Assembly: GCA_045810105.1 (NCBI GenBank)
Contig: JBJMWM010000026.1
Location: forward strand, 27,808 to 91,807
DNA length: 64,000 nucleotides
Direction of reading: 5' to 3'
Origin: Steroidobacteraceae bacterium
GTDB lineage: Bacteria; Pseudomonadota; Gammaproteobacteria; Steroidobacterales; Steroidobacteraceae
The notes beneath the pieces were generated by a model. The model was not told where the DNA came from, did not search any database, and worked only from the letters and a program-made list of their open reading frames with translations. Of the stretch, positions 11,776-46,199 are shown piece after piece; positions within the stretch are counted from its first letter, which is position 1; each line of letters begins with the position of its first letter. A program made the position numbers and the translations under genes.

Positions 11776-11797
11776 TGAGCTCCTTATCGAAGTCGCA

Positions 11798-13491: not shown

Positions 13492-13508
13492 CACTCGATG
13501 GACGCTGA

Positions 13509-19174: not shown

Positions 19175-19445
19175 CGCTCGAACAAAACCTCCGACTTCGA
19201 CTGACCCACGCGAGACGCGCGGATGCGGCTCGAAATGCCCCAGCGCATACGCACAGCGCGTATGCGCACCCTCAGGGGCGCGACTTTACCATGCAATCAA
19301 TCAGTTAAGGTCTAGCCACTTAGAGGCAAGGGGCGTACCAACGTTCGCGGCCGGGCCACCCTCTTCCGGCGCGAAGCGCCGCTACTCTTCGCGGGTCGCC
19401 CCTGGGCGATCCCGCCAAGGCGTGGGGCGCAGCCCCTGAAAAGGG

Positions 19446-20390: not shown

Positions 20391-20424
20391 GCCCACCCTT
20401 CCCGGAGGCCAGTATTTGCCAGGA

Positions 20425-29390: not shown

Positions 29391-29432
29391 CTTCCAGGTC
29401 CGGTGTTGCAAGGCCCGTCTTAGGCGATGTAG

Positions 29433-29462
29433 TTGCCACGCGAGCGGCAGTATGCATATACT
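29433..29462 (+). promoter_or_regulatory. candidate sigma-70 promoter P1 (TTGCCA-18 bp-TATACT)
   Basis: Hexamers lie at 29433-29438 and 29457-29462. A near-identical module recurs about 493 bp downstream (P2). Confidence 0.45.
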
Positions 29463-29473
29463 CGAAGCACAAA

Positions 29474-29485
29474 GGTAGCGCTACC
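29474..29485. promoter_or_regulatory. LacI-family-type operator O1 (GGTAGCGCTACC)
   Basis: Perfect 12-bp palindrome with a central CG, extended as AAAGGTAGCGCTACCATTT. It lies 12 bp downstream of the P1 -10 and about 90 bp upstream of the divergent esterase start. Confidence 0.6.
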
Positions 29486-29799
29486 ATTTGGACCCGACGC
29501 GGTATCATCCGCTGCATTATCGGGGTTCGTCCAGCTTGTTGGTCAGCGATGGCCAGTTTTGGGGGACGTTTGAAGGGGGATCTAACATTTTGTTCCGGCA
29601 GGCATTTGCCCTACGCGCGCTGCAGGCAGCGGCACGCGGATCCGGCCGGTGCCTTCCCGAACCACACCTCGCTCAGCGGCTTCGCCGTCACCGGAGCACG
29701 CAGGTGGACTTCAATTCCGGCTATGACATCAACAGCCATTTCGGTAGGCGCTTACCCTCGGCGTCGACGCGAAGTTGTAGCCTGCGGAAGTCCCGTGCA

Positions 29800-29833
29800 G
29801 GGCCGCCCCCATTGCGTGGCGGCCCTTTTTTAT
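29800..29833 (+). terminator. rho-independent terminator with no upstream plus-strand gene
   Basis: GGGCCGCC-(10 nt loop)-GGCGGCCC followed by TTTTTTAT. The orientation only works on the plus strand. Confidence 0.7.
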
Positions 29834-29925: not shown

Positions 29926-29955
29926 TTGCTACGGGGTTGGACGTGTGCATATACT
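29926..29955 (+). promoter_or_regulatory. candidate sigma-70 promoter P2 (TTGCTA-18 bp-TATACT) for the TonB-dependent receptor operon
   Basis: Hexamers lie at 29926-29931 and 29950-29955. The module is homologous to P1 over about 57 bp, including the operator. Confidence 0.45.
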
Positions 29956-29967
29956 CGGGCCCACCAA

Positions 29968-29981
29968 GATAGCGCTACCAT
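29968..29981. promoter_or_regulatory. LacI-family-type operator O2 (GATAGCGCTACCAT)
   Basis: It shares the TAGCGCTACCAT core with O1 and sits at the same spacing from the -10 hexamer. Confidence 0.55.
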
Positions 29982-30202: not shown

Positions 30203-33193
30203 ATGAGCCGAAAAACACGGCGAAATGCGTTCCGTAAGGCAGCCAGGACTTCATGTGCGACGGCCGACAAGGCCACCTACGCCAAGTTAGGTCTTTCAGG
30301 CTTCACGTTGAGCTCCATGGCCATCGGCAGCACGGTGTTTGCCGCGGACGCGGCGGACGTTCCAGCCGCAACTACCGCCAAATCATCCGAGCCGCAGGAA
30401 CTGCAGGAAGTGGTGGTCACGGGTATCCGGGCCTCCCTGCAGCGCTCGCTCGACATCAAACAGAAGGCGATCGGCGTCGTGGACGCGGTCTCGGCCGAGG
30501 ACATCGGTCAGTTCCCCGATGCCTCGATCGGTGAAGCCCTGTCGCGTATCCCCGGTGTCACGGTGAACCGCGGCTCCATCAACCAGATGGCCGGCGCCGG
30601 TGCACCCACAGCCACGGGCGCCACGACCGGAATTACCGTGCGCGGCTTCGGTACGCAGTTCAACGAAATCCTGACCGAGGGCCGGCAAGTCGCCTCGGGC
30701 AACGGACAGAACTTCGACTTCTCGGCGTTGGGCGCCGAATACGTCGGTGAGCTCGACATTCACAAGACTCCCGACTACAGCCTCTCCGCTGGCGCGGTCG
30801 GCGCGACGATCAACATCAAGTCGCCGAAGCCTTTCGATAAGCCCGGGATGCAGGCGCGCGCCTTCGCGGCCGCCAACGACAGTCAAAAGGATGGTGGCGT
30901 CAAGCCCGCCTTCGGTGCTCTGTTCAGCGATACCTTCTTCGACGATACGTTCGGTATCCTGGTCGCCGGCGACTATACGAAAAAAGAGGTCGTCGGCCAC
31001 CATTTCGATATCGTGGGTTGGAAAGGAGCGTACCTGGATCCCTGCCAGATGCTTGGCGGGCCGCAACCTTGCCAAAAGGACGCCAAGGGCAACTATATTA
31101 CGAAGCCCAACTCCTTCCCGAGCTGGTATATCCAGGACGAGGCCATGTACCTCGAGCGTACCGAGTCGACGCGCCGGGACGGGCGGGTGGCTCTGCAGTG
31201 GCGCCCCTCGGACACTGTCCTGATCACTTTCGACGACAACTATTCGTCTGACAGCCAGGTGACCCACCGCTGGCAGTACAGCACTTGGTTCGGATGCTTC
31301 CCGTCCAACTGCATGAACGTCCAGCAGGACTCCAACGGCACGATCACTGACTTCACCAACGCCAATGCGCCGACGGACTTCAACGCCAACATCGACCGGA
31401 CTTACATCACAACCAACACTCCAGGGCTCAATGTGGTCTGGGACGTCAATGACCACTTGACCGGGTTGCTGGATGTCAGTCAGTCCACGGCTCACTTGAA
31501 TCCGCGCCACACATGGTCGGCGTTCGATATCGACGTCGGCTACGGTAACGGTACGAACAACTATACCGGCGGCGTCCACGTCACCGGCGACCCCAAGACG
31601 CTGCCCTATTGGACCGCGTACGGCCCCAACACGGTCGCGGGGACCGCAAATGCCTACTCGCCGAACGTCCTCGGGCAGAACCCCTATATCATCGGCTCGC
31701 ACGTGGTTCCGATAGGGGTCCAGTACAACACCGACAAGATCAATCAGATCAAGCTCGAGGGGACCTGGCACACCGCAGACACAACGGTGAGTTTCGGAGC
31801 CCACATCCTCCAGGACGTCTGGGACTCGAGCAGCGGGAACACATTGACCAACGGCGAATGGCAGCTGTGGTCGGGATACGGACCGGCCTCGGGCAACGAC
31901 GCTGGCGTCGCCCTGCCGCAGAAGTTATTCACGCCCATATCGCTCCCGAACTTCATTCCCGGCTTCAACGGCGGCAAGCTGCCGCCCGGGGTGAACCTGT
32001 ACAACCCGTTCGACGTGCTCAACTATCTGATCACTCAACCCATCAATCCGAAATACGCACCGAACAAGGGTTATCCAAACTATGCGGGCGGCTACCCGGT
32101 GGTACCGCAGGCCCCTGGCAATGTGCAACACGTGGATCGCAAGAACTACGCCCCATTCATCACCGCGGACCACACCTTCCCCCTCGGGGACATGAGCTTC
32201 AACGCCAGAGTTGGCTTCCGGTATCAGAAGACGAACGTATACATCGCGGGGCTGACGCAGCCGCTGGTCAGCCTGACAGTGCCACAGGGTGACCTCACGG
32301 CCTATAATTTCAATCTTGGCGATGCTGTTCCCGTCTCGGCCAAGAACTCCTATGGCTATTTCCTGCCGTCTCTGGATCTCAATCTCCTGGTCCGGCCGAA
32401 CCTGAAAGTGCGACTCGATTACTCGCGCACCGAGAGTCCGCCAAACAACCAGCAGCTCATCCCGACACTCAATTACGGTGGGCGCGTGAGCGCACTCACA
32501 GCGCAGGGCAACGACCCATACCTGCTGCCCTATCTGTCGCAAAACTTCGACCTGGGTGCCGAGTGGTACTACGCTTCGAACGACTACGTATCTGTAGACG
32601 GCTTCTTCAAGCATGTCACTCAGTTCCCAGTCTCGACCGTGACACCCATCAGTGTGCCGGGCGTACTCGACAAGGACGGTAATCTGGCGGTCTTCCAGGA
32701 GAGCACCATTACCAACGGTGGATCCGCCAACGTGACAGGCGTAGAGTTGACCTGGCAGCAGATGTTGCCGTACGGTTTCGGATTCCAGGTGAACGGAACC
32801 TATGTACACAGCAACGCCAGTTTCGACCCCTACAAGCTGCAGGCCAACCAGTTCGCCGTCCCGGGAATCGGCCACTCGGCGAACCTCATCGCCTTCTATC
32901 AGAACTACGGGTTCCAGGCGCGTCTGGCGCTGCAGTGGCAGGGCGAGCAGCTGCTGCAGATCGGTCAGGAGCAGAACGGCGGCACGTTCCCGAACGAGCC
33001 CACGTACCTGAAGGCCAACACCGAGTTGGATTTCAGCACTCAGTACGACATCAGTGAGCACTTCAACGTGTTCTTCGAGGCAATCAACCTTACGGATAAC
33101 GTGTACCACACCCGTGGCCGCTTCGATAACCAGACGCTGAACGTGGTGGACTATGGCCGCTCGTTCACGATAGGAGCTCGCGCTAAGTTCTAA
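30203..33193 (+). CDS. TonB-dependent receptor (carbohydrate-scavenging type)
   Basis: Signal peptide, then QEVVVTGIRASLQRSLDIKQKAIGVVDAVSAEDIGQFPDASIGEALSRIPGV (plug/TonB-box region). The C-terminal barrel ends ...IGARAKF. ATG 30203 has a G-rich Shine-Dalgarno. Confidence 0.9.
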   Translation: MSRKTRRNAFRKAARTSCATADKATYAKLGLSGFTLSSMAIGSTVFAADAADVPAATTAKSSEPQELQEVVVTGIRASLQRSLDIKQKAIGVVDAVSAEDIGQFPDASIGEALSRIPGVTVNRGSINQMAGAGAPTATGATTGITVRGFGTQFNEILTEGRQVASGNGQNFDFSALGAEYVGELDIHKTPDYSLSAGAVGATINIKSPKPFDKPGMQARAFAAANDSQKDGGVKPAFGALFSDTFFDDTFGILVAGDYTKKEVVGHHFDIVGWKGAYLDPCQMLGGPQPCQKDAKGNYITKPNSFPSWYIQDEAMYLERTESTRRDGRVALQWRPSDTVLITFDDNYSSDSQVTHRWQYSTWFGCFPSNCMNVQQDSNGTITDFTNANAPTDFNANIDRTYITTNTPGLNVVWDVNDHLTGLLDVSQSTAHLNPRHTWSAFDIDVGYGNGTNNYTGGVHVTGDPKTLPYWTAYGPNTVAGTANAYSPNVLGQNPYIIGSHVVPIGVQYNTDKINQIKLEGTWHTADTTVSFGAHILQDVWDSSSGNTLTNGEWQLWSGYGPASGNDAGVALPQKLFTPISLPNFIPGFNGGKLPPGVNLYNPFDVLNYLITQPINPKYAPNKGYPNYAGGYPVVPQAPGNVQHVDRKNYAPFITADHTFPLGDMSFNARVGFRYQKTNVYIAGLTQPLVSLTVPQGDLTAYNFNLGDAVPVSAKNSYGYFLPSLDLNLLVRPNLKVRLDYSRTESPPNNQQLIPTLNYGGRVSALTAQGNDPYLLPYLSQNFDLGAEWYYASNDYVSVDGFFKHVTQFPVSTVTPISVPGVLDKDGNLAVFQESTITNGGSANVTGVELTWQQMLPYGFGFQVNGTYVHSNASFDPYKLQANQFAVPGIGHSANLIAFYQNYGFQARLALQWQGEQLLQIGQEQNGGTFPNEPTYLKANTELDFSTQYDISEHFNVFFEAINLTDNVYHTRGRFDNQTLNVVDYGRSFTIGARAKF

Positions 33194-33195
33194 AC

Positions 33196-34743
33196 GTGGT
33201 ACAGCCGCTCAAAACGGTCGTCATCGTCGGTGGAGGAACCGCCGGGTGGCTCACCGCAGGGCTCATCGCCGCCCGCCATCAGGCTCGGATGAAGGCGGGC
33301 GGCCTCTCTGTAACGCTGATTGAGTCACCGGACATCAAGATCATCGGCGTTGGGGAGGGTACGTGGCCGACGATGCGCGCATCCTTGGAGGGGATGGGCG
33401 TATCGGAAACTGCACTCTTCCGCGAGTGCGACGCGGCGTTCAAACAGGGAGGCAAATTCGCTGGCTGGACCACGGGGGCGGCGGATGATGCGTACTATCA
33501 TCCCTTGATGCTTCCGCAGGGATTCAGTCAGCTCAATCTCGTGCCGCATTGGATGCAGGAAGCGCGAAGCCGAAGCTTCTGCGACTTCGTTACACCGCAG
33601 GGTAAGCTGTGCGATGACGGGCTGGCTCCCAAGCTGATCACGAGCCCGGAATACCGGGCGCTCGCGAATTACTCCTATCATCTGGATGCAGGCAAATTCG
33701 CGCCCTTTCTCGCCACGCACTGTACGCAGAAGCTCGGTGTCCGCCATGTCCTGGCTGATGTCGTGCAGGTCAATCAGAGCGAGTCTGGCGATATCGAGAG
33801 CGTGCTCACGCCGCAGGCCGGTGAGATCTCGGGCGACTTGTTCATCGACTGCAGCGGCTTCTCCGCGCTGCTCATTGGCAAGACGCTCGGTGTCGGCTTC
33901 AAAGATTGTGGCGACATCCTCTTCTGCGATACGGCGCTCGCGGCCCAGGTTCCGTATGCGACGCCCGATGAGCCCATGGCATCTCAGACCCTCTCCACTG
34001 CACAGGAAGCCGGCTGGATCTGGGATATCTCTCTACCGACGCGACGCGGGGTCGGTTACGTGTATTCGAGCCGCCACTCGAGCGAGGCAGCTGCGCGTGA
34101 GACTTTGCAACGCTACATTGGACCGCAACATCGCGACCTGCCCGCTCGTAAAATCCCGATCCGTTCCGGCCATAGACAGACCTTCTGGAAAAACAACTGC
34201 ATCGCGGTCGGACTCGCAGGTGGTTTCCTCGAGCCGCTGGAGTCTTCCGCGATCGTATTGGTAGAGCTGTCGGCGAAGTTGATCGCCGAGCAGCTGCCCG
34301 CCAACCGGGAGATCATGGACATCGTGGCGCGGCGCTTCAATGACGTGACGATGTACCGGTGGGGCCGGATCATCGATTTCCTGAAGCTCCATTACGTTCT
34401 CACGCGGCGCACCGATACCGCGTTCTGGCGCGAAAATGTTGACCGTGCGAGCATTCCGGAACGGCTCCAGGAGCTGTTGAAGCTCTGGAAGTACCACCCG
34501 CCGTGGTTTTTCGATGAATTCGACCGGCTGGAAGAGGTTTTTCCGGCCGCCAGCTATCAATACGTGCTCTACGGAATGGGATTCGAGAGTGAGGCGCGGC
34601 CGCAGGATACAATCGATACCGAGCTGCTCGCAGCGCGGCTGCGGCAGGAGAATGAGCGGCAGACCTTCGAATTGCGCTCGCGGCTGCCCAGGAACCGCGA
34701 GCTGCTGAATAAGATCTACGAGTACGGGCTGCAGCCCGTTTGA
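33196..34743 (+). CDS. flavin-dependent tryptophan-halogenase-family protein 1
   Basis: GGGTAGW FAD motif, GVGEGT, and Lys in AAFKQGGKF (aligns with the PrnA Lys79 region). The WxWxIP-like motif is GWIWDIS (Pro replaced by Ser). GFLEPLESS is present. GTG start lies 2 nt after the receptor stop. Confidence 0.85.
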   Translation: MVQPLKTVVIVGGGTAGWLTAGLIAARHQARMKAGGLSVTLIESPDIKIIGVGEGTWPTMRASLEGMGVSETALFRECDAAFKQGGKFAGWTTGAADDAYYHPLMLPQGFSQLNLVPHWMQEARSRSFCDFVTPQGKLCDDGLAPKLITSPEYRALANYSYHLDAGKFAPFLATHCTQKLGVRHVLADVVQVNQSESGDIESVLTPQAGEISGDLFIDCSGFSALLIGKTLGVGFKDCGDILFCDTALAAQVPYATPDEPMASQTLSTAQEAGWIWDISLPTRRGVGYVYSSRHSSEAAARETLQRYIGPQHRDLPARKIPIRSGHRQTFWKNNCIAVGLAGGFLEPLESSAIVLVELSAKLIAEQLPANREIMDIVARRFNDVTMYRWGRIIDFLKLHYVLTRRTDTAFWRENVDRASIPERLQELLKLWKYHPPWFFDEFDRLEEVFPAASYQYVLYGMGFESEARPQDTIDTELLAARLRQENERQTFELRSRLPRNRELLNKIYEYGLQPV

Positions 34744-34757
34744 CCAGTTACGGGTCA

Positions 34758-34791
34758 CGACCCGTACGACCCGTACGACCCGTACGACCCG
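34758..34791. repeat. 9-bp tandem repeat CGACCCGTA x 3.8
   Basis: Read directly from the sequence. It lies between the halogenase stop (34743) and the sapC ATG (34800). It is in frame with TTG 34740, giving (RPV)n. Confidence 0.85.
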
Positions 34792-34799
34792 AGTGCACC

Positions 34800-35540
34800 A
34801 TGACGCAGATCGTTCCCCTCAACAAAAACACCCACCGCTCCTTGAAAGTCGACGGGCGCTCTTCGGCTGCCTACGGTGACAATCGGCGCTTCGTGCAGGT
34901 GATCGTCAAGGAATTTCCACAACTGCTGGTCCACTACCCGATTCTGTTCTCGAAGGACCCGAAGACGGGCCACTTCTACTGTGGCGCGATGCTGGGTTTT
35001 GACGAGGCCGAGAATCTTTTCCTCGACGAGTGGGCGGATCGCGATGTCTACCGTCCGCTCATGCTGCAGCGCGGTCCCTTCTACGCAAATGGCCCGGACC
35101 TCGCGATCGATCTCGACGATCCGCGGGTAGGCGTGGAAGGCGGTAAGACTCTCTTCACCGACCAGGGGGAGCCGAGCCGCTACCTGCAGAGCATCATCTG
35201 GGCCTTCCAGGATCTGAGCCCCGGCGTCGAAATGACGAAACTGTTCATCGAGCGGCTCCTGGAGCTGAAGCTCATCGAGCCCGTCGATGTCGAGGTGGAG
35301 TGTGACGATGGCACGATCCGCAGGTGTATCGGCCTCTACACGATCAACCAGGACGAGTTGATGAGGCTGCCCGATGCAGCCGTCGTGGAGCTTTTCAGGC
35401 GCGGATATCTGCGCCTGATCCATCACATGATCGCCTCGCTCAAGCAGGTTCGGGTGATGGCGCGGAAGAAGAACTCGCGGCTCCTGAGGGCAACCGAGGC
35501 TCTGGCGCGAACGCACGCGCCGGCGGCGGCCATCGGCTGA
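34800..35540 (+). CDS. SapC family protein
   Basis: MTQIVPLNKNTHRSLKV...FPQLLVHYPILFSKDPKTGHFYCGAMLGF is the SapC N-terminal pattern. The alternative TTG 34740 forms a TTGA overlap with the halogenase stop. Confidence 0.8.
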   Translation: MTQIVPLNKNTHRSLKVDGRSSAAYGDNRRFVQVIVKEFPQLLVHYPILFSKDPKTGHFYCGAMLGFDEAENLFLDEWADRDVYRPLMLQRGPFYANGPDLAIDLDDPRVGVEGGKTLFTDQGEPSRYLQSIIWAFQDLSPGVEMTKLFIERLLELKLIEPVDVEVECDDGTIRRCIGLYTINQDELMRLPDAAVVELFRRGYLRLIHHMIASLKQVRVMARKKNSRLLRATEALARTHAPAAAIG

Positions 35541-35569
35541 CGTCAGACGAACGCTCCGCGAGCCTCTGC

Positions 35570-36586
35570 ATGCCTCACGCACTCACTGAGATCGCCGCCC
35601 GCGATCTGGATGCGGCGCTTTTCCTGCAACAGGTCGTGCAGGCGTGTCGGCCGGTGGTCATCCGTGGATTGATTGACAACTGGCCGATCGTAAGCGCAGC
35701 GCGCGGCTCGCCGCGGGGGTTGAAGGACTATCTTGCGGCGTTCGACAACGGGGGGAATGTCGAAGTATTCTTCGGGGATCCCGAGATCCGTGGCCAGTAT
35801 TACTACAACCCCGGGCTGGACGGATTCAACTTCGAGCGGCGCATGATGAAGTTCATGGAGGCCATGGATTGCATCCTGGAAGCGCTGGATCATCCGGGTA
35901 CGCGGTCGGTTTATGTTGGCTCCGTACCTACCGGCGATTGCCTGCCGGGTTTCGCCGCCGGCAATCCCGTGCCCTTCGCCGCTTCCGCAGCTGGCGCGCG
36001 GATCTGGCTCGGAACTGCCTCGAACGTCTCGAGCCACTACGATACTTTCGATAACCTCGCCTGTGTCGTTGCCGGGCGGCGCCGATTCACGCTCTACGCT
36101 CCCGAGCTCATCAGCAGCCTCTATATAGGCCCCCTCGACAACACCATGTCCGGACCGCCGGTCAGCCTGGCCGCTTCGGCATCGGCGGGCAGCAGCGACA
36201 AGTTCCCGCTGTTCGAGCAGATCCGTGACCAGGCGCTGCGGGTGGAGCTCGAGGCCGGGGACGCCCTGTACCTGCCGAAGCTGTGGTGGCATCAAGTTGA
36301 GTCGCTCGCTGACTTCAACGGGCTCGTCAACTACTGGTGGGATGCATTCAGCGCCGGCCCGGATGCTCCTTACACCGCCCTCCTCCTCAGCATGATCACC
36401 ATTGCAGAGCGGCCGCCTGCCGAGCGGCGGGCATGGAAGGCTTTCTTCGATCACTATGTTTTTCGTACTGCCGGCCATCCGCTTGCGCATCTGCCTCCCG
36501 AGCACCATGGGCTGCTTGGGCCCCTCAAACCAGACAACTACTCGAAAATCCGCGCGCGCATCCTGCGTATGTTGAGGGCGCTGTAG
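35570..36586 (+). CDS. cupin-like JmjC-type (Cupin_8) 2OG oxygenase family protein
   Basis: HxD is seen in SSHYDTFDN and the distal His in LWWHQVESL. The ORF-track extension upstream overlaps sapC, so ATG 35570 was chosen. Confidence 0.8.
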   Translation: MPHALTEIAARDLDAALFLQQVVQACRPVVIRGLIDNWPIVSAARGSPRGLKDYLAAFDNGGNVEVFFGDPEIRGQYYYNPGLDGFNFERRMMKFMEAMDCILEALDHPGTRSVYVGSVPTGDCLPGFAAGNPVPFAASAAGARIWLGTASNVSSHYDTFDNLACVVAGRRRFTLYAPELISSLYIGPLDNTMSGPPVSLAASASAGSSDKFPLFEQIRDQALRVELEAGDALYLPKLWWHQVESLADFNGLVNYWWDAFSAGPDAPYTALLLSMITIAERPPAERRAWKAFFDHYVFRTAGHPLAHLPPEHHGLLGPLKPDNYSKIRARILRMLRAL

Positions 36587-36605
36587 GCTAAGGACGAGCC
36601 ACGTC

Positions 36606-38819
36606 ATGTTGACAGGTCAGATGTTCGAGGCTGCCATGCTCCACCACCGCGGTGGACGTCTGAGGGAGGCCGAGCGTCTCTATCGGCTAATCCTGGAGGC
36701 AGACTCCAACCATGCCGAGGCATTGCACATGCTCGGCGTGCTCGCTTATCAGACCGGTCAACAGCAACTCGCAATCGAGATGATCAGCCGCGCGATCGCC
36801 CGGAACGGGCAGATGCCCGCCTTTCACAACAACCTGGGCAATGTATACGCAGCTGCCGGCAATTGGCAGGATGCGGAAACCTCGTTCCGACGGGCCTTGG
36901 ATCGAAAGCCGGATTACGCCGAGGCTCACTACAACCTGGGGAATGCCCTGCAGGCCCAGAACAATCTCGAGGCTGCGGCAGCCGCGTATCAGCACGCTCT
37001 GCGGCTTCGGCCAAACCATGCCGAGACCTGCCTCAACCTCAGCAACGTTCTGCAAGCGCAGGGCAAGTTGGAGGAAGCGCTCGAAGCCTCTCAGCGGGCG
37101 ATTGCCTTGAAGCCGGATCTGGCCGCCGCGCACAATAATCTGGGCAACATCCTGGCAGCGCAGAACCGCTTCGAAGCTGCGGTGGCTGCATACTCCCGAG
37201 CGCTCACCCTGAGGCCCAACCTCGCGGAAGCGCATCACAATCGGGGGCTCGCCCTGTTGAACGCGGGACGGGCAGACGAAGCGGCGGTGTCGTGCCGGCA
37301 AGCCGTGTCGCATAAGCCGGATTACATCGCAGCCTACATCACTCTCGGGCATGCCCTGACACAGAGCGCAGATACTGAAGAAGCTTTACGGTGCTATCAA
37401 CGCGCCATCACTCTCGATCCAAACTGTGGGGAGGCCATGTGGGGGTGTGCGGTTGCGCCAATTCCGATCGTCTGTGGCAGCGTCGTTGAGAGCAAGGCGG
37501 CAGCGGAAACATTTGGTCGCCACCTGGACACATTGGTGCAGTGGAGTGGCGCGCACCCGGGAAAACTCGGCGAAGCCGTCGGCCGGGTTCAGCCGTTCTA
37601 TCTCGCATACCGGCCATCCGATGCGACGGCCGTCCTGTCCCGCTACGGGGACCTGGCAAGTACCGAAGGCACCGCCTATTGGAAGCCGCCGGCAGTAGCC
37701 GATCGAGGGTCTCGACCGGATCGGGACCGCATCCGCATAGCGGTAGTGAGTGGGCACGTGAGGCAGCGCCATCCTGTCTGGGAAATCATACTGCGTGGGC
37801 TGATTGCGCACCTGGATCCACAGCAATTCGAGGTGGTTCTGTATCACACGGGTGCGGCTGTCGATGAGGAGACCAACTGGGCCCGCGGGCAAGTCGCACG
37901 CTTCGTGCAGGGCCCCAAACCAGTGAAGGTTTGGCTGGCCGAGATCGTCCACGGGCAACCCGATGTGATCTTTTATCCCGAGCTGGGAATGGATCCAAAC
38001 ACCGGTACCCTGGCCGCTTTGCGGCTGGCCCCTCTGCAGATCGCAGGCTGGGGACACCCGATCACGACCGGGCTACCGAGCATCGACTGGTTTCTGTCTG
38101 CCGAGCTCCTCGAGAGTCCGCAGGCTGAGCAACACTACCGAGAGAGACTCGTACGCTTGCCCGGAACGGGCGTGTACACCGAATTTCGCGCACAGCAGAC
38201 CGAGAGTTGGGATGGCCCCGAGCGGCGCAAAGACTTTGTCCGCTTCGCGTTGTGCCAGCAGCCTGCCAAATTCGATCCGGGGGACGATGTGCTCCTCGCG
38301 CGCCTTGCGAAGGCTGTCGGAGCCGCTGAATTCTGGCTGGCGACACCGAGGAACATGCCATGGACCGCTGCGAAGCTCCGCGAGCGGCTTTCGCTCGCTT
38401 TCCGAGCTGAGGGCCTCGATCCGGAGGCGTACCTGCATACAACACCCTGGTTGCCCCGCCAGCAGTTCCTGAGCTTCCTCGAGGAAATGGACATTTATCT
38501 GGATTGCCCCGCTTTCTCCGGCTACACGACAGCCTGGCAGGCGCTCCATTGCGGTCTGCCGATCGTTACACTCGAGGGGCAGTACCTTCGTCAACGGCTC
38601 TCAGCAGGTTTGTTGAGGCAGGTCGGGACAACCGACGGCATCGCTTCCTCCCGCGAGCAGTACTCAGCGACGGCGATTGGTTGGGCGAACGAATGTCGGG
38701 ACGCCGAGCGCTGGGCTGCGCGCCGCGCCGAGCTTCGTCGCGCAGCGGCACGGGCCGACGGAAACGCTGCCGCGATCCGCGTGTTCGAGCAGCGACTACG
38801 GGAAGCGTTTCAGCGCTAA
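36606..38819 (+). CDS. TPR-repeat protein with C-terminal SPINDLY/OGT-like (GT41) glycosyltransferase domain
   Basis: About seven TPR units (AEAHYNLGNALQAQ, AETCLNLSNVLQAQ, AAAHNNLGNILAAQ ...). The C-terminal RIRIAVVSGHVRQRHPVWEIILRGLIAHLDPQQFEVVLY is typical of the GT41 catalytic half. Confidence 0.8.
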   Translation: MLTGQMFEAAMLHHRGGRLREAERLYRLILEADSNHAEALHMLGVLAYQTGQQQLAIEMISRAIARNGQMPAFHNNLGNVYAAAGNWQDAETSFRRALDRKPDYAEAHYNLGNALQAQNNLEAAAAAYQHALRLRPNHAETCLNLSNVLQAQGKLEEALEASQRAIALKPDLAAAHNNLGNILAAQNRFEAAVAAYSRALTLRPNLAEAHHNRGLALLNAGRADEAAVSCRQAVSHKPDYIAAYITLGHALTQSADTEEALRCYQRAITLDPNCGEAMWGCAVAPIPIVCGSVVESKAAAETFGRHLDTLVQWSGAHPGKLGEAVGRVQPFYLAYRPSDATAVLSRYGDLASTEGTAYWKPPAVADRGSRPDRDRIRIAVVSGHVRQRHPVWEIILRGLIAHLDPQQFEVVLYHTGAAVDEETNWARGQVARFVQGPKPVKVWLAEIVHGQPDVIFYPELGMDPNTGTLAALRLAPLQIAGWGHPITTGLPSIDWFLSAELLESPQAEQHYRERLVRLPGTGVYTEFRAQQTESWDGPERRKDFVRFALCQQPAKFDPGDDVLLARLAKAVGAAEFWLATPRNMPWTAAKLRERLSLAFRAEGLDPEAYLHTTPWLPRQQFLSFLEEMDIYLDCPAFSGYTTAWQALHCGLPIVTLEGQYLRQRLSAGLLRQVGTTDGIASSREQYSATAIGWANECRDAERWAARRAELRRAAARADGNAAAIRVFEQRLREAFQR

Positions 38820-38854
38820 CAGTCCGTCGGACTTGCGCATGCGCCGCCGGCGCA

Positions 38855-38882
38855 GCCGGCAAAAACCACGCTTTTTGCCGGC
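38855..38882. other. perfect 11-bp-stem hairpin GCCGGCAAAAA-(6)-TTTTTGCCGGC
   Basis: Read directly from the convergent intergenic region. No flanking T-run was seen, so a terminator function is uncertain. Confidence 0.4.
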
Positions 38883-38901
38883 GACCTACGAAGTGATGTC
38901 C

Positions 38902-38926
38902 GAAAAACGGCTGCAAGCCGTTTTTC
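38902..38926. terminator. bidirectional intrinsic terminator GAAAAACGGCT-gca-AGCCGTTTTTC
   Basis: A GC core stem is flanked by A5 on one side and T5 on the other. It lies between the convergent TPR-GT41 and halogenase-2 genes. Confidence 0.65.
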
Positions 38927-38933
38927 TAATCGA

Positions 38934-40463
38934 CTAGAGTGCAGGAAGCCCATGCGGTTCTTGAGGTGCTGCGCAGTGCTGGGCTATGAAAGCCTCATGC
39001 AATGGCATGTCGGCAGCACACTTGGCAACGACGTCTCGTATATTGTCGAGCGCTCTCTGACCCCGTTCGAAGGTCAACGCGTCAGCCCTCGGGTCGTAGC
39101 CTTCGGGGCGCACATCCTGACCTACGAACAGGTACAGCCAGCTCTGCACGTTGAATAGCTCGTTCTCATCGCGCACGATGCGGCCGTAGCTGCGGAAGAG
39201 ATCCAGGCGCTCCCTGAGGCTGTCGGGCAGCTCCATGTTGCGGCAGTAGCGCCAGAACTCGCCCTCGCGCTCCGTCTTGTTGTAGTGGACTATCAGGAAA
39301 TCGCGGATGCGCTCGTACTCGAAGGCAAGCTGCCGGTTGTAACGATCGATGTCCGGTTGACTGAACCGGCGGTCCGGAAAGAATTGCCAAAGCAGCGCGA
39401 TGCCGCGCTGGATCAGGTAAATACCACTCGATTCGAGCGGCTCGAGAAATCCCGCGGCAAGCCCGATCGCGACGCAGTTCTTGTTCCAGCTCAGCCGCCG
39501 CCGTCCCGTCGTAAATCGCAGCGGCAGTGGATCGCGCAACGCGCGGCCCTCGAGGCTCGACATCAGCTTCTGCTGCGCCTCATCGTCCTGGACGAAGCTA
39601 CTGCAATACACATACCCGTTACCCACCCGGTGCTGCAGAGGAATTCGCCATTGCCAGCCGACATCACGCGCAGTAGCGAGGGTGTGCGAGGAAAACGGGC
39701 CAGTCCGTTCGCATGGGACCGCTACAGCACGGTCACACGGCAACCACCGCGTCCAGTCCTCGTATCCGGTCTTCAGCGCCCCTTCGATCAGGACACCGCG
39801 GAAGCCGGTACAGTCGACAAAGAGATCAGCCTCGATCTGCTCGCCACTCTCGAGCGTGAGTGACGCGATGAAGCCGTCCTCGGGCCTGAGGGTAACGCCT
39901 TGGAGTTTGCCCTCCGTCCGGATAACGCCGCGCGCTTCTGCGTAGGTCCGCAGGTAAGCCGTCAAGAGCGAGGCGTCCAGATGCAAGGCATAGGTGATGG
40001 TCTCAACGGGCGACTTCGGGACTTTGATCGGTCGCATGAAGCGTCCCTGACGAGCCGCCACGGCCTGCAACGAATACTCTTCGAGCGGGCTCGCCCGGCC
40101 GCGCTCGCGGTGTTTGAACCAGTAGGCAGAGAATTCCACTCCCCCCTGAGGCAAACCCGTTGGGCCGAAGGGGTGGATGTAGGAGTGCCCGGGCCGCGTC
40201 CAATCCTTGAATTCGATGCCGAGCTTGAAGCTTGCCTGGGTCTTGCGGATCAGCTCATTCTCGTCGATGCCGAGCAGCCTGATGGCATCGATGATAGGCG
40301 GGATCGTTGCCTCACCCACCCCGATGGTACCAATTTCGGCCGACTCGATCAGACGGATGCCGCATTCCGTGCCCTCGAGGAATTTGGCCAGTATGGCAGC
40401 CGTCATCCACCCGGCTGTGCCCCCGCCGACGATGGCGATGCTGCGGATTCGATCGAGGGGCAC
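38934..40463 (-). CDS. flavin-dependent tryptophan-halogenase-family protein 2
   Basis: GGGTAGW, GVGEATIP, Lys in ASFKLGIEF, canonical WxWxIP as GWQWRIPL, and GFLEPLESS. GTG start. Confidence 0.85.
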   Translation of the reverse strand: MPLDRIRSIAIVGGGTAGWMTAAILAKFLEGTECGIRLIESAEIGTIGVGEATIPPIIDAIRLLGIDENELIRKTQASFKLGIEFKDWTRPGHSYIHPFGPTGLPQGGVEFSAYWFKHRERGRASPLEEYSLQAVAARQGRFMRPIKVPKSPVETITYALHLDASLLTAYLRTYAEARGVIRTEGKLQGVTLRPEDGFIASLTLESGEQIEADLFVDCTGFRGVLIEGALKTGYEDWTRWLPCDRAVAVPCERTGPFSSHTLATARDVGWQWRIPLQHRVGNGYVYCSSFVQDDEAQQKLMSSLEGRALRDPLPLRFTTGRRRLSWNKNCVAIGLAAGFLEPLESSGIYLIQRGIALLWQFFPDRRFSQPDIDRYNRQLAFEYERIRDFLIVHYNKTEREGEFWRYCRNMELPDSLRERLDLFRSYGRIVRDENELFNVQSWLYLFVGQDVRPEGYDPRADALTFERGQRALDNIRDVVAKCAADMPLHEAFIAQHCAAPQEPHGLPAL

Positions 40464-40481: not shown

Positions 40482-41798
40482 TCAGTAACGGCAGTGCCGC
40501 GCGATCAGGCTCTCGGCCAACTCCTGTTTACCGGAACGCGGCGCAGGATCGAGCCCCTTGTCGGTAGCCAGATCCGCCAGGCTGGCAAGATTCAGCTCCC
40601 CGCCCAGGATTCGCTTACCGAGCTCGCCACTCCAACCCTGATAGCGCTCCTGCTTCAGCCGCTGCAATGCGCCGTCCGTGACGATATCGGCCGCTGCCAG
40701 CAAGGCCCGTGAGATCGTATCGATACCGCCGATGTGAGCGAGGTACAGGTCGGCGGGATCCACGGACTGGCGGCGCAGCTTGGCATCGAAGTTGAATCCG
40801 CCGGTGGTGAAGCCCTGGTCCTCGACCAGCTGCACCAGCGCGGGCGCCAGCTCCTGCGCATTGTTGGGGAACTGGTCCGTGTCCCAGCCATTGCGCGGAT
40901 CGCCGCGGTTGATGTCGATTGAGCCGAAGATGCCGTAGGCGCGCGCCGCGGCGATCTCATGCTCGAAATCCAGGCCCGCAAGTGTTGCGTGGTTGACCTC
41001 GATGTTGACCTTTACCTCCTTCGTCAGCCCATAGCGCTGCAGGAAGGCAAACACGGCGGCCACGTCATGATCGTACTGGTGCTTGGTGGGCTCGAAGGGC
41101 TTCGGCTCGATGAGAATGGTGCCTTTGAAGCCGATCTTGTGTTTGTGCTCCACCACCAGCGAGAGAAACCGGCCGTATTGATCCAGCTCGCGGCGCAGGT
41201 CGGTATTCAACAGCGAGTCGTAGCCTTCGCGGCCGCCCCACAACACGTAGTTCTGGCCACCCAGGCGGTGCGTGGCCTCCAGGCAGCAGCGCACTTGCGC
41301 CGCGGCCCAGGCGTAGACCTCCGGATCGGGGCTGGTGGCAGCGCCGCCGGCATAGCGCGGGTGACTGAACAGGTTGGCCGTACCCCACAGGAGCTTCACC
41401 CCGGTAGCGGCCATCTTCTGCGCCATGCCCGCTTCGATCGTCTTCAGGTTCCTGTCGTGCTCTTTGAGCGTGGCCGCGGTGGCCATGGCATCCACATCAT
41501 GGAAGGTGAAATATGGCACCCCGAGGCGCTTGAAGAAGTCGAACGCGGCTTCGAGCTTGCTGTCCGCCATGGCCTGGGTGACCGGTGTGCCGATCCAGGG
41601 CCGGTTCAGCGTTCCGCCGCCAAAGATATCCGCACCCGGCCAGTTGAAGGAGTGCCAGTAGCACACGGCGACTTTCAGCCACTCCTCCATGCGCTTGCCA
41701 AGGACCACGCGGTCCTTGTCATACACACGGTACGCAAACTCGTTCTTCGTGCTGGGTCCTTCGAAGCGAACGGGCTCAACACTTGAAAACAAACTCAT
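40482..41798 (-). CDS. xylA: xylose isomerase
   Basis: 438 aa. FEGPSTKNEFAYRVYDKDRVVLGKRMEEWLKVAVCYWHSF and FHD/WGGREGY motifs. Confidence 0.95.
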   Translation of the reverse strand: MSLFSSVEPVRFEGPSTKNEFAYRVYDKDRVVLGKRMEEWLKVAVCYWHSFNWPGADIFGGGTLNRPWIGTPVTQAMADSKLEAAFDFFKRLGVPYFTFHDVDAMATAATLKEHDRNLKTIEAGMAQKMAATGVKLLWGTANLFSHPRYAGGAATSPDPEVYAWAAAQVRCCLEATHRLGGQNYVLWGGREGYDSLLNTDLRRELDQYGRFLSLVVEHKHKIGFKGTILIEPKPFEPTKHQYDHDVAAVFAFLQRYGLTKEVKVNIEVNHATLAGLDFEHEIAAARAYGIFGSIDINRGDPRNGWDTDQFPNNAQELAPALVQLVEDQGFTTGGFNFDAKLRRQSVDPADLYLAHIGGIDTISRALLAAADIVTDGALQRLKQERYQGWSGELGKRILGGELNLASLADLATDKGLDPAPRSGKQELAESLIARHCRY

Positions 41799-43535: not shown

Positions 43536-43565
43536 ATGGTAGCGCTATCACGAAGCGGGCGTCAA
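43536..43565 (-). promoter_or_regulatory. candidate xylBA promoter (TTGACG-18 bp-TACCAT on minus strand) with overlapping LacI-type operator TGGTAGCGCTATCA (43537-43550)
   Basis: The operator shares the TAGCGCTA core with O1 and O2. It overlaps the -10 hexamer. It lies about 280 bp upstream of the xylB start. Confidence 0.5.
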
Positions 43566-44673: not shown

Positions 44674-44802
44674 TTCTGACCTCAGCGCTGTTCGATGCCG
44701 CCCATTGTAGCAAGCGCGCGCGTCCACTCCGGCGCCTGGATTTGAACTTTGTAGCAGACAGCCGCACACTGCGCAGCCTGCCGCATTAGACTTAAGTGGA
44801 CG

Positions 44803-45906: not shown

Positions 45907-45945
45907 GAGCGGGCCTGCGAGGGCGGGCCTCGTGGCACTGGCGCC

Positions 45946-46091
45946 GCACTGCTGGCCTCGCACTGCTGGTCTCGCACTGCTGGTCTCGCACCGCTGGCCC
46001 GCACCGCTGGCCCGCACCGCTGGCCCGCACCGCTGGCCCGCACCGCTGGCCCGCATCGCTGGCCCGCACCGCTGGCCCGCATCGCTGGCCC
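45946..46091. repeat. tandem repeat: 3 x 14 bp (GCACTGCTGGYCTC) then 8 x 13 bp (GCAYCGCTGGCCC)
   Basis: Unit boundaries were counted directly. The unit length is not a multiple of 3. It is intergenic, between the oxidoreductase stop (45906) and the kinase-like gene start (46200). Confidence 0.9.
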
Positions 46092-46199
46092 CGCGGCGTG
46101 GCCTCGCCGCCCTCCCTTTCATCTGCGGCCACTGCGCCTTATCCAGTGATATCTTTGCGTGTTCTTGCGGGCTTGGATCAGGGGACGGCGGTGGTGGCG

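Follow-up and report, generated by a model that had tools for sequence, protein, structure and literature searches.

A carbohydrate-type TonB-dependent receptor and its co-transcribed halogenase, SapC and JmjC cassette in a xylose locus of a Steroidobacteraceae bacterium

The window analysed here (64,000 nucleotides of contig JBJMWM010000026.1, Steroidobacteraceae bacterium, assembly GCA_045810105.1) contains a carbohydrate-scavenging locus under XylR-type control, in which a TIGR01782-type TonB-dependent receptor (TBDR) shares its transcription unit with a widespread accessory cassette, one that is independent of the sugar. The receptor gene (30203..33193, + strand; Pfam Plug and TonB_dep_Rec_b-barrel) belongs to NCBIfam TIGR01782 'TonB-Xanth-Caul' (504 bits, cut-off 310), the Xanthomonas/Caulobacter carbohydrate-type subfamily, and its product has a long signal region at the N-terminus. 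Downstream on the same strand are the genes for Hal1, a flavin-dependent halogenase of the 2PYX clade (33196..34743; Pfam Trp_halogenase 1.9e-118), a SapC family protein (PF07277; 34800..35540; 5.1e-55), a Cupin_8/JmjC Fe(II)/2-oxoglutarate oxygenase (35570..36586; Cupin_8 4e-59, plus JmjC_2) and a TPR-repeat protein with a C-terminal GT41 (OGT/SPINDLY-like) glycosyltransferase domain (36606..38819), which matched many TPR families of Pfam together with Glyco_transf_41 (44.8 bits, cut-off 25). Hal2, a flavin-dependent halogenase of the BrvH/Xcc4156 clade (38934..40463, - strand; Trp_halogenase 1.7e-183), is convergent to this set and is the last gene of the xylB-xylA unit. According to the Pfam analysis, all six genes named in the preliminary description are therefore present and on the strands claimed there. 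The unit itself comprises xylB (xylulokinase, 41795..43255, - strand; TIGR01312, 547 bits, cut-off 380) and xylA (xylose isomerase, 40482..41798, - strand; TIGR02630, 616 bits, cut-off 533), with xylB and the xylA start overlapping by 4 nt. Next to it is a LacI-family regulator gene, the XylR candidate (43636..44634, - strand). Its matches to Pfam LacI and Peripla_BP_1/3/4 all fall inside residues 496-825 of the mechanical ORF 43636-46122, of which only about the C-terminal third is likely to be the real gene. On the other side, divergent from the receptor operon, we found a SASA-type carbohydrate esterase with a galactose-binding-like domain (27261..29411, - strand; Pfam SASA 3.7e-22) and a hydrophobic, signal-like N-terminus. 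It is also found at the equivalent place in the closest syntenic locus (L005) and is probably a member of the xylose regulon.

The genes of the set had been described as joined by 2-nt and overlapping junctions. The 2-nt gap between the receptor stop and the Hal1 start is indeed there, but most of the other junctions proved to be short gaps. SapC homologues are 240-245 aa long, so its start is most likely ATG 34800 and not TTG 34740. With this start Hal1 and SapC do not overlap, and the 56-nt spacer between them holds a (ACCCGTACG)x3 repeat. The cupin start at ATG 35570 gives a protein of 338 aa (333-338 aa in its homologues), and the gaps are 29 nt from SapC to the cupin, 19 nt from the cupin to GT41 and 18 nt from the xylA stop to the Hal2 start. 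Between the convergent GT41 and Hal2 genes there are two hairpin terminators (38855-38882 and 38902-38926), with folding energies of -19.7 and -15.8 kcal/mol; the one at 38902-38926 carries U-runs and is bidirectional, its z being -5.1 (+ strand) and -4.2 (- strand). As previously claimed, none of the five non-receptor proteins has a signal peptide: Kyte-Doolittle analysis found neither a signal-like hydrophobic stretch at the N-terminus nor a transmembrane one, the best mean over 19 residues was ≤1.7, and in both halogenases the most hydrophobic stretch was the Rossmann beta-alpha-beta motif. This argues for a cytoplasmic location of the five.

The palindrome WGRTAGCGCTAYCA, a xyl-box, is present in three copies (29473, 29967 and 43537), which are confined to three promoter regions near the LacI-type regulator gene; it had no matches in 100 shuffles. 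In the receptor promoter (29926..29980, + strand) a promoter-like site TTGCTA-18-TATACT is followed by the xyl-box AGATAGCGCTACCA (29967-29980), and this block is conserved in related loci by blastn (L004-L006, L012 and L047-L049). Upstream, a block with TTGCCA-18-TATACT and the xyl-box AGGTAGCGCTACCA at 29473-29486 (29433..29486, + strand) is a local duplicate, 76% identical to the receptor promoter. In the case of xylB, the promoter-like site (43536..43565, - strand) overlaps the xyl-box TGGTAGCGCTATCA (43537-43550). Of 49 related loci, 38 also have a xyl-box upstream of their TBDR gene. These three boxes in three promoters beside a LacI-type regulator place the receptor set in the xylose regulon, in agreement with the earlier assignment and with the presence of xylA, xylB and the regulator gene adjacent to the set.

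All the halogenase motifs quoted previously are present in the translations: GGGTAGW, AAFKQG, GWIWDIS(LP) and EPLES in Hal1, and GGGTAGW, ASFKLG, GWQWRIP and EPLES in Hal2. The idea that these motifs are apparently competent was strengthened by the invariance of the Lys, the Glu and the WxW in the homologues, that is K83, E349, W274 and W276 in 155 Hal1-type proteins and K80, E344 and WxWxIP in 60 Hal2-type proteins. GWIWDIS is not a degenerate WxWxIP, as GW[ITV]WDI[GCA]L[P] is the invariant signature of the whole Hal1/2PYX clade. Hal1 matches the PDB entries 2PYX (6e-162), 9LTB and 9LU2, and a literature search by PDB code returned nothing on the newer structures. Hal2 is closest to 6FRL (BrvH, 6.5e-150) and 6Y1W (Xcc4156, 4.8e-142), and its motifs ATIPPI and HPFGP are those of group C; motifs for binding the Trp backbone are absent. 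Both BrvH and Xcc4156 brominate indole derivatives in vitro but not free tryptophan, their active site is open with the catalytic Lys exposed to solvent, and peptide substrates, as for MibH, have been suggested by the authors (PMC5945002, PMC7336383). Consequently, the statement that no substrate or biochemical role has been established holds for the native substrate only, an activity being known for proteins close to Hal2. The Xcc4156 gene lies in a TBDR-SapC-Cupin_8-Hal-TonB operon. Hal2 follows xylA in eight related loci and is missing from L005. No recognisable flavin reductase was found among the cassette genes with Pfam and NCBIfam.

The AF2 model of SapC is confident (pLDDT 96.6), and it had no match in PDB or BFVD, no solved fold being similar. 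Its conserved positions include a polar constellation (H12, E38, E71, N72 and R91), which could indicate an enzyme rather than an adaptor, and do not include a nucleotide-binding Gly-rich motif. In-frame Hal1-SapC fusions occur in three contigs (52-85% mutual identity; both domains confirmed by Pfam) and a Hal-DUF6445 fusion occurs in Cellvibrio; the natural fusions suggest that Hal1 and SapC act jointly. SapC is also found with a receptor and an oxygenase in the absence of a halogenase (L084, L021 and L079). Among solved structures the cupin is nearest to JMJD7, TYW5, JMJD5 and FIH, all protein hydroxylases except TYW5, whose substrate is tRNA. The HxD...H triad (H156, D158 and H241) is invariant in 110 homologues, and the cupin has an Arg at the position of the 2OG-binding Lys of JMJD7 and FIH. 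This Arg and the SapC polar constellation count against the tailoring proposal given below. The catalytic half of GT41 aligns with Thermobaculum OGT (5DJS), SPINDLY, human OGT, XcOGT and HMW1C and retains the hallmark motifs HP, GHPxTTG, QQPAKFDP and GYTT; the solved relatives found for this domain (OGT, SPINDLY, HMW1C) are all protein glycosyltransferases. TPR-GT41 belongs to the set here, but not to its core, since 8 of the 46 related loci with complete flanks have a close homologue (≥45% identity).

Gene order and orientation are kept in ~160 loci of Gamma- and Alphaproteobacteria. Among 79 reference-genome loci, a Hal1-type gene is directly upstream of SapC in 53 of the 59 with enough upstream sequence, and Cupin_8 is directly downstream in 64/72. 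In 80 independent metagenome loci, SapC follows Hal1 in 61/67 and a TBDR is adjacent in 39/51 (elsewhere in the locus in 7 more). Of 54 loci in which the distance between the TBDR stop and Hal1 could be measured, 30 have a gap of ≤8 nt. TBDR and SapC are the near-constant pair of the cassette, and the Hal1-type halogenase comes immediately behind the receptor. The gene after SapC encodes a Cupin_8 oxygenase of the JmjC type, replaced in other genomes by a DUF6445 or 2OG-FeII_Oxy_5 protein. The Hal2-type halogenase, relocated here to the last position of the xylBA operon under XylR control, completes the set, and a TPR-fused transferase is an optional addition (GT41 here, a sulfotransferase elsewhere). 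Between one and three halogenases, each of its own clade, occur per cassette, along with one or two oxygenases and a transferase. The cassette accompanies receptors of xylan, beta-glucan and further loci, and the same order is found beside GH1, GH3 and MFS genes in Shewanella, beside GH81, GH3 and GH16 in Cellvibrio, and also in Microbulbifer, Pseudoxanthomonas and Xanthomonas; these differing neighbours indicate that it is independent of the receptor's sugar. Furthermore, single genomes carry several receptor-specific copies: six have two paralogous TBDR-Hal1-SapC sets each, one linked to xylAB and the other to LacI/GH1/MFS, with identities of 56-63% (TBDR), 76-86% (Hal1) and 70-78% (SapC).

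We propose, with a probability of roughly 35%, that the cassette is a cytoplasmic module, dedicated to its receptor and dependent on O2, for the tailoring of a protein or peptide linked to that receptor, the prime candidate being the precursor of the receptor itself. In this scheme aromatic and aliphatic side chains would be the targets of the halogenases, which use FADH2, O2 and halide, and of the JmjC enzyme, which uses Fe(II) and 2-oxoglutarate. The OGT-like enzyme would add a sugar, perhaps onto a new hydroxyl group, and SapC, which some organisms carry in natural fusion with Hal1, would hold or present the substrate. A macromolecular substrate is suggested by the relatives of Hal2, the cupin and GT41 and by the TPR fusions, which are found in both the GT41 and the sulfotransferase variants. 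Neither a free sugar nor free tryptophan is a likely substrate: xylose and xylo-oligosaccharides as such would not be processed by the cassette, and a free-tryptophan halogenase pathway is also disfavoured. Several points go against this proposal. No modified TonB-dependent receptor is reported in the literature searched, we know of no precedent for halogenation of a full-length bacterial protein, and the activities shown for relatives concern small indoles only. Sec export needs an unfolded precursor, which leaves a brief window for modification. Moreover, no candidate target motif was identified in the receptor, which was examined without unlinked TIGR01782 receptors as controls.

It is possible, if rather unlikely, that the halogenases, the JmjC/2OG oxygenases and SapC make a halogenated, hydroxylated metabolite from tryptophan or indole (Iyer et al. 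2010), glycosylated or sulfated in some cassettes and imported or sensed by the TBDR like a siderophore. This is the published prediction for the neighbourhood (PMC2938197) and accords with the bromination of free indoles by BrvH and Xcc4156; the SapC polar residues would suit an enzyme, and one to three halogenases of different clades with several oxygenases and a transferase look more like the stepwise tailoring of one small aromatic scaffold. However, the receptor is of the carbohydrate and not the siderophore type, control is by a xyl-box and a LacI-type regulator and not by iron, and the neighbours in ~85 loci include no NRPS, amino-acid-activating enzyme or conserved exporter, GH3, GH1, GH67, GH9, CE15, AXE1 and sugar MFS genes being recurrent instead. 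Several paralogous cassettes per genome, each with its own sugar receptor, are also hard to square with one diffusible product, and the cupin and GT41 families have no known action on small molecules. The latter applies as well, with regard to small aromatics, to the doubtful proposal that the cytoplasmic targets of the enzymes are the parts of the imported cargo other than sugar, for instance aglycones of phenolic or indolic type or xylo-oligosaccharides decorated with feruloyl and coumaroyl groups, which would be detoxified or made usable. One receptor per cassette copy would fit this, as would co-regulation with xylan side-chain enzymes (the SASA esterase in the window; CE15, AXE1 and GH67 in related loci). 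Nevertheless, the cassette also occurs in beta-1,3-glucan (GH81, GH16), beta-glucoside (GH1, GH3) and peptidase-flanked loci whose cargoes share no aromatic moiety, halogenation is not known as a catabolic step, and the cluster in the window has no inner-membrane transporter.

A narrower suggestion, compatible with any substrate, is that SapC supplies what the halogenases lack, either as their flavin reductase or as a subunit that handles flavin or halide. The lack of a recognisable reductase in the cassette and the adjacency and fusion of Hal1 and SapC speak for it. We nevertheless consider it improbable, as SapC occurs without a halogenase, its model resembles neither a flavin reductase nor any other solved fold, and the Gly-rich motif is not conserved. 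Finally, the genes could be chance neighbours or remnants of a decaying natural-product cluster, in line with the absence of Hal2 from L005 and of GT41 from most loci. This is very improbable and is already contradicted by the conservation data, namely the order and orientation kept across the loci, the invariant catalytic residues, the tight junctions and the recurrent gene fusions.

The cassette is not new as a kind. The JmjC/halogenase/SapC/TonB-receptor neighbourhood has been known since 2010 (Iyer et al. 2010; PMC2938197), which matches the earlier remark that the co-occurrence had been noted with its role unknown, and our literature searches found no established function for it. What the present analysis adds is the operon context of Xcc4156, the spread of the cassette irrespective of the sugar and the multiple receptor-specific copies per genome, together with the recurrent Hal1-SapC fusions, a SapC model unmatched among solved folds, and catalytic residues that are invariant over 60-155 homologues.

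Mechanical ORF listing together with Pfam and NCBIfam scans defined two convergent transcription units. On the forward strand, a TonB-dependent receptor gene (TBDR; 30203-33193) is followed by genes for a flavin-dependent halogenase, Hal1 (33196-34743; Pfam Trp_halogenase, PF04820, 1.9e-118), a SapC protein (34800-35540; PF07277, 5.1e-55), a Cupin_8/JmjC protein (35570-36586; Pfam 4e-59, Cupin_8 201 bits) and a TPR-GT41 protein of 737 aa (36606-38819) that combines about eight TPRs with a GT41 domain at the C-terminus. On the reverse strand, a second halogenase gene, Hal2 (38934-40463; Trp_halogenase 1.7e-183), comes after xylB (41795-43255) and xylA (40482-41798), both assigned by the same scans, and a LacI-family regulator gene (43636-44634, reverse strand) lies beyond xylB. 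The preliminary description had proposed exactly this set with a convergent Hal2, and Pfam and NCBIfam agree with it. The receptor, in which both Plug and barrel were found, belongs to the TIGR01782 'TonB-Xanth-Caul' subfamily (504.1 bits, above the curated cut-off of 310). It had also been proposed that the forward genes are joined by 2-nt and overlapping junctions; the 2-nt gap between TBDR and Hal1 stands, but the remaining junctions are gaps of 56, 29 and 19 nt without overlaps, because the starts of SapC (ATG 34800) and of the cupin (ATG 35570) were placed according to homologue lengths. The 56-nt spacer between Hal1 and SapC (34744-34799) carries a 9-nt tandem repeat, (ACCCGTACG)x3, which would encode PVRPVRPVRP under an alternative, TTG-started reading of SapC. 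The stop codons of the convergent units flank two hairpins, the second of which is a bidirectional terminator (z = -5.1 / -4.2). No signal-like or transmembrane segment was found in the five accessory proteins, as had been noted for signal peptides, and all five are predicted to be cytoplasmic.

Base composition is uniform across the window (GC 0.59-0.65), and no genomic-island signature was seen in it. The regulator gene can also be read as part of a longer ORF (43636-46122, reverse strand; 828 aa), in which LacI and Peripla_BP matches appear only from residue ~496 on; its Arg/Ala-rich N-terminal 490 aa are probably not translated. Away from the receptor locus, the window contains a phosphonate-type set (5709-14007) with a PEP mutase-nucleotidyltransferase fusion, a TPP-dependent decarboxylase and an aminotransferase, beside which lie an Omp85-like gene and an ORF with a HalD-like domain (PF23169); hopanoid/isoprenoid genes (15993-21609) for a squalene-hopene cyclase, a squalene/phytoene synthase, a polyprenyl synthetase and an HpnH-like radical SAM protein (DUF3463); and an 811-aa protein (57812-60247, reverse strand) in which three ricin-type lectin domains are fused to a galactose-oxidase-like Kelch/E-set catalytic region.

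The placement of these genes inside a xylose regulon was confirmed. The palindrome WGRTAGCGCTAYCA (the xyl-box) occurs three times in 64 kb and in none of 100 shuffles, and its three copies fall in three promoter regions with the LacI-type regulator, a candidate XylR, nearby: just downstream of a promoter-like site before the TBDR (29926-29980, forward strand), in a duplicated promoter about 490 nt upstream of the receptor copy (29433-29486, forward strand), and overlapping a promoter-like site of xylB (43536-43565, reverse strand). Of 49 related loci, 38 also have a xyl-box upstream of the receptor, and several keep the receptor-proximal promoter-operator block at the DNA level. Hal2 lies directly 3' of xylA on the same strand, 18-28 nt away, in eight related loci, and this repeated arrangement indicates that Hal2 regularly ends the xylBA operon in this lineage. 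The xylose regulon is genuine, with regulator binding to the boxes being predicted from the sequence, and we conclude with high confidence that the window contains a XylR-controlled receptor operon bearing a conserved halogenase-SapC-oxygenase cassette. As for the upstream promoter and xyl-box copy (region 29428-29832), it shows 76% identity over 62 nt to the receptor promoter and is followed by ~330 nt without a conserved ORF and by a terminator-like hairpin with U6 (29799-29832), making it a candidate source of a short xylose-responsive transcript. The region matches nothing in Rfam and is missing from the closest syntenic locus; a search upstream of the receptor for a precursor peptide or sRNA gave neither a conserved ORF nor an Rfam match.

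Similar regulation has been described in Xanthomonas campestris and Caulobacter crescentus, where the receptors XCC2828, XCC4120 and CC0999 are induced by xylose and share a conserved palindrome (Blanvillain et al. 2007; PMC1790865). The xyl-box of the window matches that palindrome, and its receptor resembles those three in being of carbohydrate type and in its linkage to xylose/xylan genes and to a LacI-type regulator. The halogenase, SapC and cupin genes are not mentioned in that work, which defined a CUT locus as a TBDR plus an inner-membrane transporter, a degradative enzyme and a regulator (PMC1790865). In the window we found the TBDR, a SASA esterase and the LacI regulator, and no inner-membrane sugar transporter among the ORFs scanned at 19-60 kb, so that it amounts to no more than a partial CUT locus; in related loci, a Sugar_tr MFS gene is present.

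In order to see how constant this arrangement is, we surveyed reference genomes with a SapC-seeded scan that yielded 79 loci. A closer SapC alignment was used for it because two broader ones were too diverse, which biases this survey towards Steroidobacteraceae, a bias offset by targeted searches that started from the Xcc4156 and 2PYX sequences of the PDB and by 80 further loci from a scan of metagenomes; several distant SapC loci lie on contigs too short to be informative. In the reference loci with enough flank, a Hal1-type gene immediately precedes SapC in 53 of 59 and Cupin_8 immediately follows it in 64 of 72. The 46 fully flanked loci include 24 with Hal2, 33 with xylA and 8 with a GT41 protein at least 45% identical to that of the window; the closest syntenic locus (L005) repeats the gene order of the window, GT41 included, but has no Hal2. 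Recurrent neighbours in this lineage are genes for GH3, sugar MFS, CE15, AXE1, GH67, GH1 and GH9 proteins, as well as for a secreted retropepsin-like protease and another type of TPR-GT41. The protease, an aspartyl enzyme absent from the window, is encoded directly 3' of the cupin in 17 Steroidobacteraceae loci (e.g., L030 11879-12988). The second TPR-GT41 type (L018 1116-2900 and about 7 other loci; Pfam GT41 1.5e-72) is located divergently upstream of the receptor and is only 25-28% identical to that of the window.

Beyond this lineage, a Xanthomonas locus (L087 5099-12709) reads TBDR-SapC-Cupin_8-Hal-TonB_C, with a halogenase 99% identical to Xcc4156 (6Y1W), and the order TBDR-Hal1-SapC-Cupin_8-Hal2 is found in Pseudoxanthomonas, Shewanella and Microbulbifer. 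Cellvibrio has TBDR-SapC-Cupin_8 and three halogenases between GH81 and GH3/GH16 genes. Of the metagenome loci, 39 of 51 carry the TBDR as an adjacent gene, and another 7 carry it farther away in the locus. Hal1 is followed by SapC in 61 of 67, and SapC is in turn followed by a Cupin_8 gene in 21 of 42 and by a DUF6445 gene in 8. DUF6445 (PF20043) appears as a recurrent cassette member (L089 15070-15795, L090 6215-8440 and metagenome loci L095-L145), in other loci between TBDR and Hal1. One locus consists of TBDR-SapC-2OG-FeII_Oxy_5 without a halogenase. From these surveys, receptor and SapC emerge as the most constant pair, with oxidative enzymes and TPR-transferases being exchangeable. In 30 of 54 loci no more than 8 nt separate TBDR and Hal1, and six genomes contain two paralogous TBDR-Hal1-SapC sets each, located in different sugar loci. 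The cassette is ancient and widespread and does not depend on the sugar, and the halogenases of the window are its canonical Hal1 and Hal2 pair, split between two XylR-controlled operons.

Both halogenases had been described as competent-looking, and this view holds at the level of motifs. The GxGxxG FAD-binding motif reads GGGTAGW in both and is kept in the homologues that cover the N-terminus. The catalytic residues are K83 and E349 in Hal1, and K80 and E344 of Hal2 align with K83 and E349 of BrvH. The catalytic Lys is K79 in PrnA and RebH and K83 in BrvH, and the catalytic Glu is E346 in PrnA and E349 in BrvH. The homologues collected from the related loci, 155 of Hal1 type and 60 of Hal2 type, all retain the catalytic Lys, the two Glu of EPLES and the two Trp. 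The WxWxIP motif, which keeps the substrate away from the flavin, is canonical in Hal2 (GWQWRIP; invariant in 60/60), as had been stated; the GWIWDIS of Hal1, which had been set apart from it, turned out to be the signature of a clade, GW[ITV]WDI[GCA]LP. Hal1 reads GWIWDISLP, with no variation among homologues at the two Trp or the Ile; its Pro is displaced by two residues, as it is in 2PYX, 9LTB and 9LU2, and Hal1 forms a separate clade with these three (2PYX, 6e-162). Hal2 is closest to BrvH (6FRL, 6.5e-150), Xcc4156 (6Y1W, 4.8e-142) and 9LUQ, with only ~250-277 bits to true Trp halogenases and ~30 bits to phenol- and pyrrole-type enzymes. It aligns without insertions to the short substrate loops of BrvH and Xcc4156, and carries the group-C motifs ATIPPI and HPFGP, whose equivalents in Hal1 are GTWPTM and HPLML. 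A free L-Trp halogenase in the strict sense was rejected, since the motifs Trp3/Trp4 and the long substrate loops, by which such enzymes hold the amino and carboxylate groups of Trp, were not found.

In the cupin, H156-Y-D158 and H241 align with the iron-binding triad of JMJD7 in an HxD/E...H arrangement, and H156-x-D158...H241 is invariant in 110 homologues. In classical 2OG oxygenases an Arg binds the C5 carboxylate of 2OG; at this position the cupin has GRRRF versus GEKHF in JMJD7, the residue being Lys in FIH and JMJD7, and its 110 homologues have Arg in 103 cases and Lys in 7. Among solved structures, those nearest to the cupin are hydroxylases of proteins or of tRNA. The TPR-GT41 protein has its TPRs at the N-terminus and a GT41 domain supported by Pfam (PF13844, 44.8 bits; cut-off 25). 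Its GT41 half alone matches the Thermobaculum OGT (5DJS, 7e-19), SPINDLY (6e-18), human OGT (1.6e-15), XcOGT (2.4e-13) and HMW1C (1e-6), and every solved GT41 relative found is a protein glycosyltransferase. The nucleotide-sugar and catalytic motifs HP, GHPxTTG, QxxK(F/I)DP and G(H/Y)TT are all kept, with QQPAKFDP, SGYTT and RHP aligning with the motifs of human OGT and SPINDLY; the Lys of QLYKIDP is K842 in human OGT. Judged by their motifs, the halogenases and the GT41 protein look fully competent, as does the cupin in its iron-binding triad. Membership of an anti-phage defence system was considered and rejected, the only match to PADLOC models being a generic TPR one on the GT41 protein.

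SapC matches its family over the full length (186.9 bits, PF07277 profile positions 1-218 of 220), a family of 2408 representative clusters at 50% identity. E38, P47 and P86 are invariant in 152 homologues, and H12, E71, N72, R91, P93 and F94 nearly so. No sequence homologue was found in the PDB. An AlphaFold2 model built on 118 diverse sequences (pLDDT 96.6, pTM 0.89) gave no Foldseek match at E ≤ 1e-3 against PDB and BFVD, and a winged-helix or MurB likeness was discarded because these matches were sub-threshold with TM-scores of at most 0.2; on this evidence, the modelled SapC appears to have a fold without a solved relative. In-frame Hal1-SapC fusions of 770-775 aa, with both domains confirmed by Pfam, are encoded in three metagenome contigs (L083 1125-3437, L092 5986-8313 and L093 3617-5932) and are 52-85% identical to each other. 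The fusion in L092 has as its neighbours two TPR-sulfotransferase genes and a TonB-dependent receptor of the CarboxypepD_reg type; in fusion-type loci TPR-sulfotransferases stand in place of the TPR-GT41. A Hal-DUF6445 fusion occurs in Cellvibrio. The fusions would be explained if SapC were the missing flavin reductase, an idea that leaves the SapC genes without a nearby halogenase unaccounted for and that we regard as very unlikely.

The neighbourhood itself has been known since 2010, and relatives of Hal2 have already been crystallised and assayed. Predicted operons that join JOR/JmjC, halogenase, SapC and TonB-receptor genes were reported from alpha- and gammaproteobacteria, and their halogenases, between one and three in number, keep the Rossmann fold and the catalytic Lys (Iyer, Abhiman, de Souza and Aravind 2010, NAR 38:5261; PMC2938197). 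The window has these four families in a comparable predicted operon, adds a TPR-GT41 gene to it and carries the second halogenase gene inside the xylBA operon. BrvH and Xcc4156 brominate indole, do not accept free Trp and have a solvent-exposed catalytic Lys and short loops; larger substrates such as peptides were suggested by the authors (PMC5945002; PMC7336383). Hal2 shares with them the catalytic Lys and Glu, WxWxIP and the short substrate loops; their activity is known only in vitro on surrogate indoles, and Hal2 is known from its sequence. These two papers appear not to mention the TBDR/SapC context, as literature searches on that pairing missed both. Hal1 shares with 2PYX (from Shewanella frigidimarina), 9LTB and 9LU2 the GW[ITV]WDI[GCA]LP signature in place of WxWxIP, and Shewanella relatives of 2PYX are located in TBDR-Hal1-SapC-Cupin_8-Hal2 operons; literature searches returned nothing on the newer structures 9LTB, 9LU2 and 9LUQ and no reported activity for any halogenase of the 2PYX clade. 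The preliminary description had stated that the co-occurrence of these families had been noticed before with no role established. Iyer et al. (2010) fit that statement and a full-text search found no paper assigning a function to the cassette. This description and its conclusion of function unknown are essentially correct.

We tentatively propose that the cassette is a receptor-dedicated cytoplasmic module that would tailor a protein or peptide, and we give this inferred mechanism a probability of about 0.35. The receptor-specific paralogy points to a protein or peptide tied to the receptor as the substrate to look for, and the receptor precursor would be the most economical candidate, with SapC possibly acting as a holding or presenting subunit. 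More specifically, the cassette could serve TBDR maturation, the precursor or a receptor-specific partner being held by SapC and halogenated, hydroxylated and, in this locus, glycosylated before Sec export; in this full form the proposal is unlikely. There are partial analogies for such tailoring: HMW1C, a GT41 enzyme, glycosylates the HMW1 adhesin, a protein of the outer-membrane pathway, in the cytoplasm before Sec export, and Skp1 is a single dedicated protein modified by an O2/2OG-dependent prolyl-hydroxylase and then by glycosyltransferases. These are analogies only; neither system has an equivalent of the halogenases or of SapC. The active site of MibH, a Trp halogenase from the NAI-107 lanthipeptide pathway, is open, and the Trp that it halogenates has to be part of a peptide. 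MibH was proposed as the functional analogue by the crystallographers of BrvH and Xcc4156; Xcc4156 is only ~26% identical to MibH and does not cluster with it (PMC5945002; PMC7336383). In contrast to that pathway, the window has neither a precursor-peptide gene nor lanthipeptide machinery.

The main alternative, proposed in 2010, is that the cassette makes a halogenated and hydroxylated tryptophan-derived small molecule. The presence of several halogenases per cassette and the in vitro activity of their relatives on indole speak for it, but the receptor subfamily is the carbohydrate-type TIGR01782, the regulation is sugar-specific, there are cassette paralogues per receptor, and scaffold and export genes are absent from the neighbourhoods surveyed; we consider it possible and rather unlikely. 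A TIGR01782 receptor with a xyl-box argues against the siderophore-type receptor and siderophore-like product envisaged by Iyer et al. (2010). A siderophore or NRPS-type cluster was rejected for the same two reasons and for the absence of scaffold enzymes: no NRPS/NIS scaffold enzyme, exporter or iron-type receptor and regulation was found among the ORFs of the window or the recurrent neighbours, and no conserved scaffold-building enzyme, exporter or precursor-peptide gene near the cassette in the window or in related loci. Against a processing of aromatic decorations of the imported glycan stands the occurrence of the cassette in xylan, beta-glucan and other loci alike, and we regard this reading as very unlikely.

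Such cassettes adjoin carbohydrate receptors in Proteobacteria of soil, plant-associated and marine habitats (Steroidobacteraceae, Xanthomonas, Shewanella, Cellvibrio, Microbulbifer, Asticcacaulis and Sphingomonas), which take part in the turnover of plant and algal glycans, and two halogenases of the cassette, BrvH and Xcc4156, are being developed as biocatalysts. Our analysis ties Xcc4156 to a TBDR-SapC-cupin operon, reveals recurrent Hal1-SapC fusions and receptor-specific paralogy, and offers in this window a xylose-inducible and genetically compact test case for the function of the cassette. If the small-molecule proposal is true, the cassette would represent a new class of sugar-regulated halometabolites. 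If protein tailoring is true, it would be a new layer of outer-membrane protein biogenesis. In the event that the receptor itself is matured in this way, many carbohydrate receptors of environmental Proteobacteria would bear covalent modifications that have gone unrecognised, and among these receptors would be the first bacterial outer-membrane protein known to be halogenated. Such modifications could tune transport, stability, or recognition by phages and bacteriocins.
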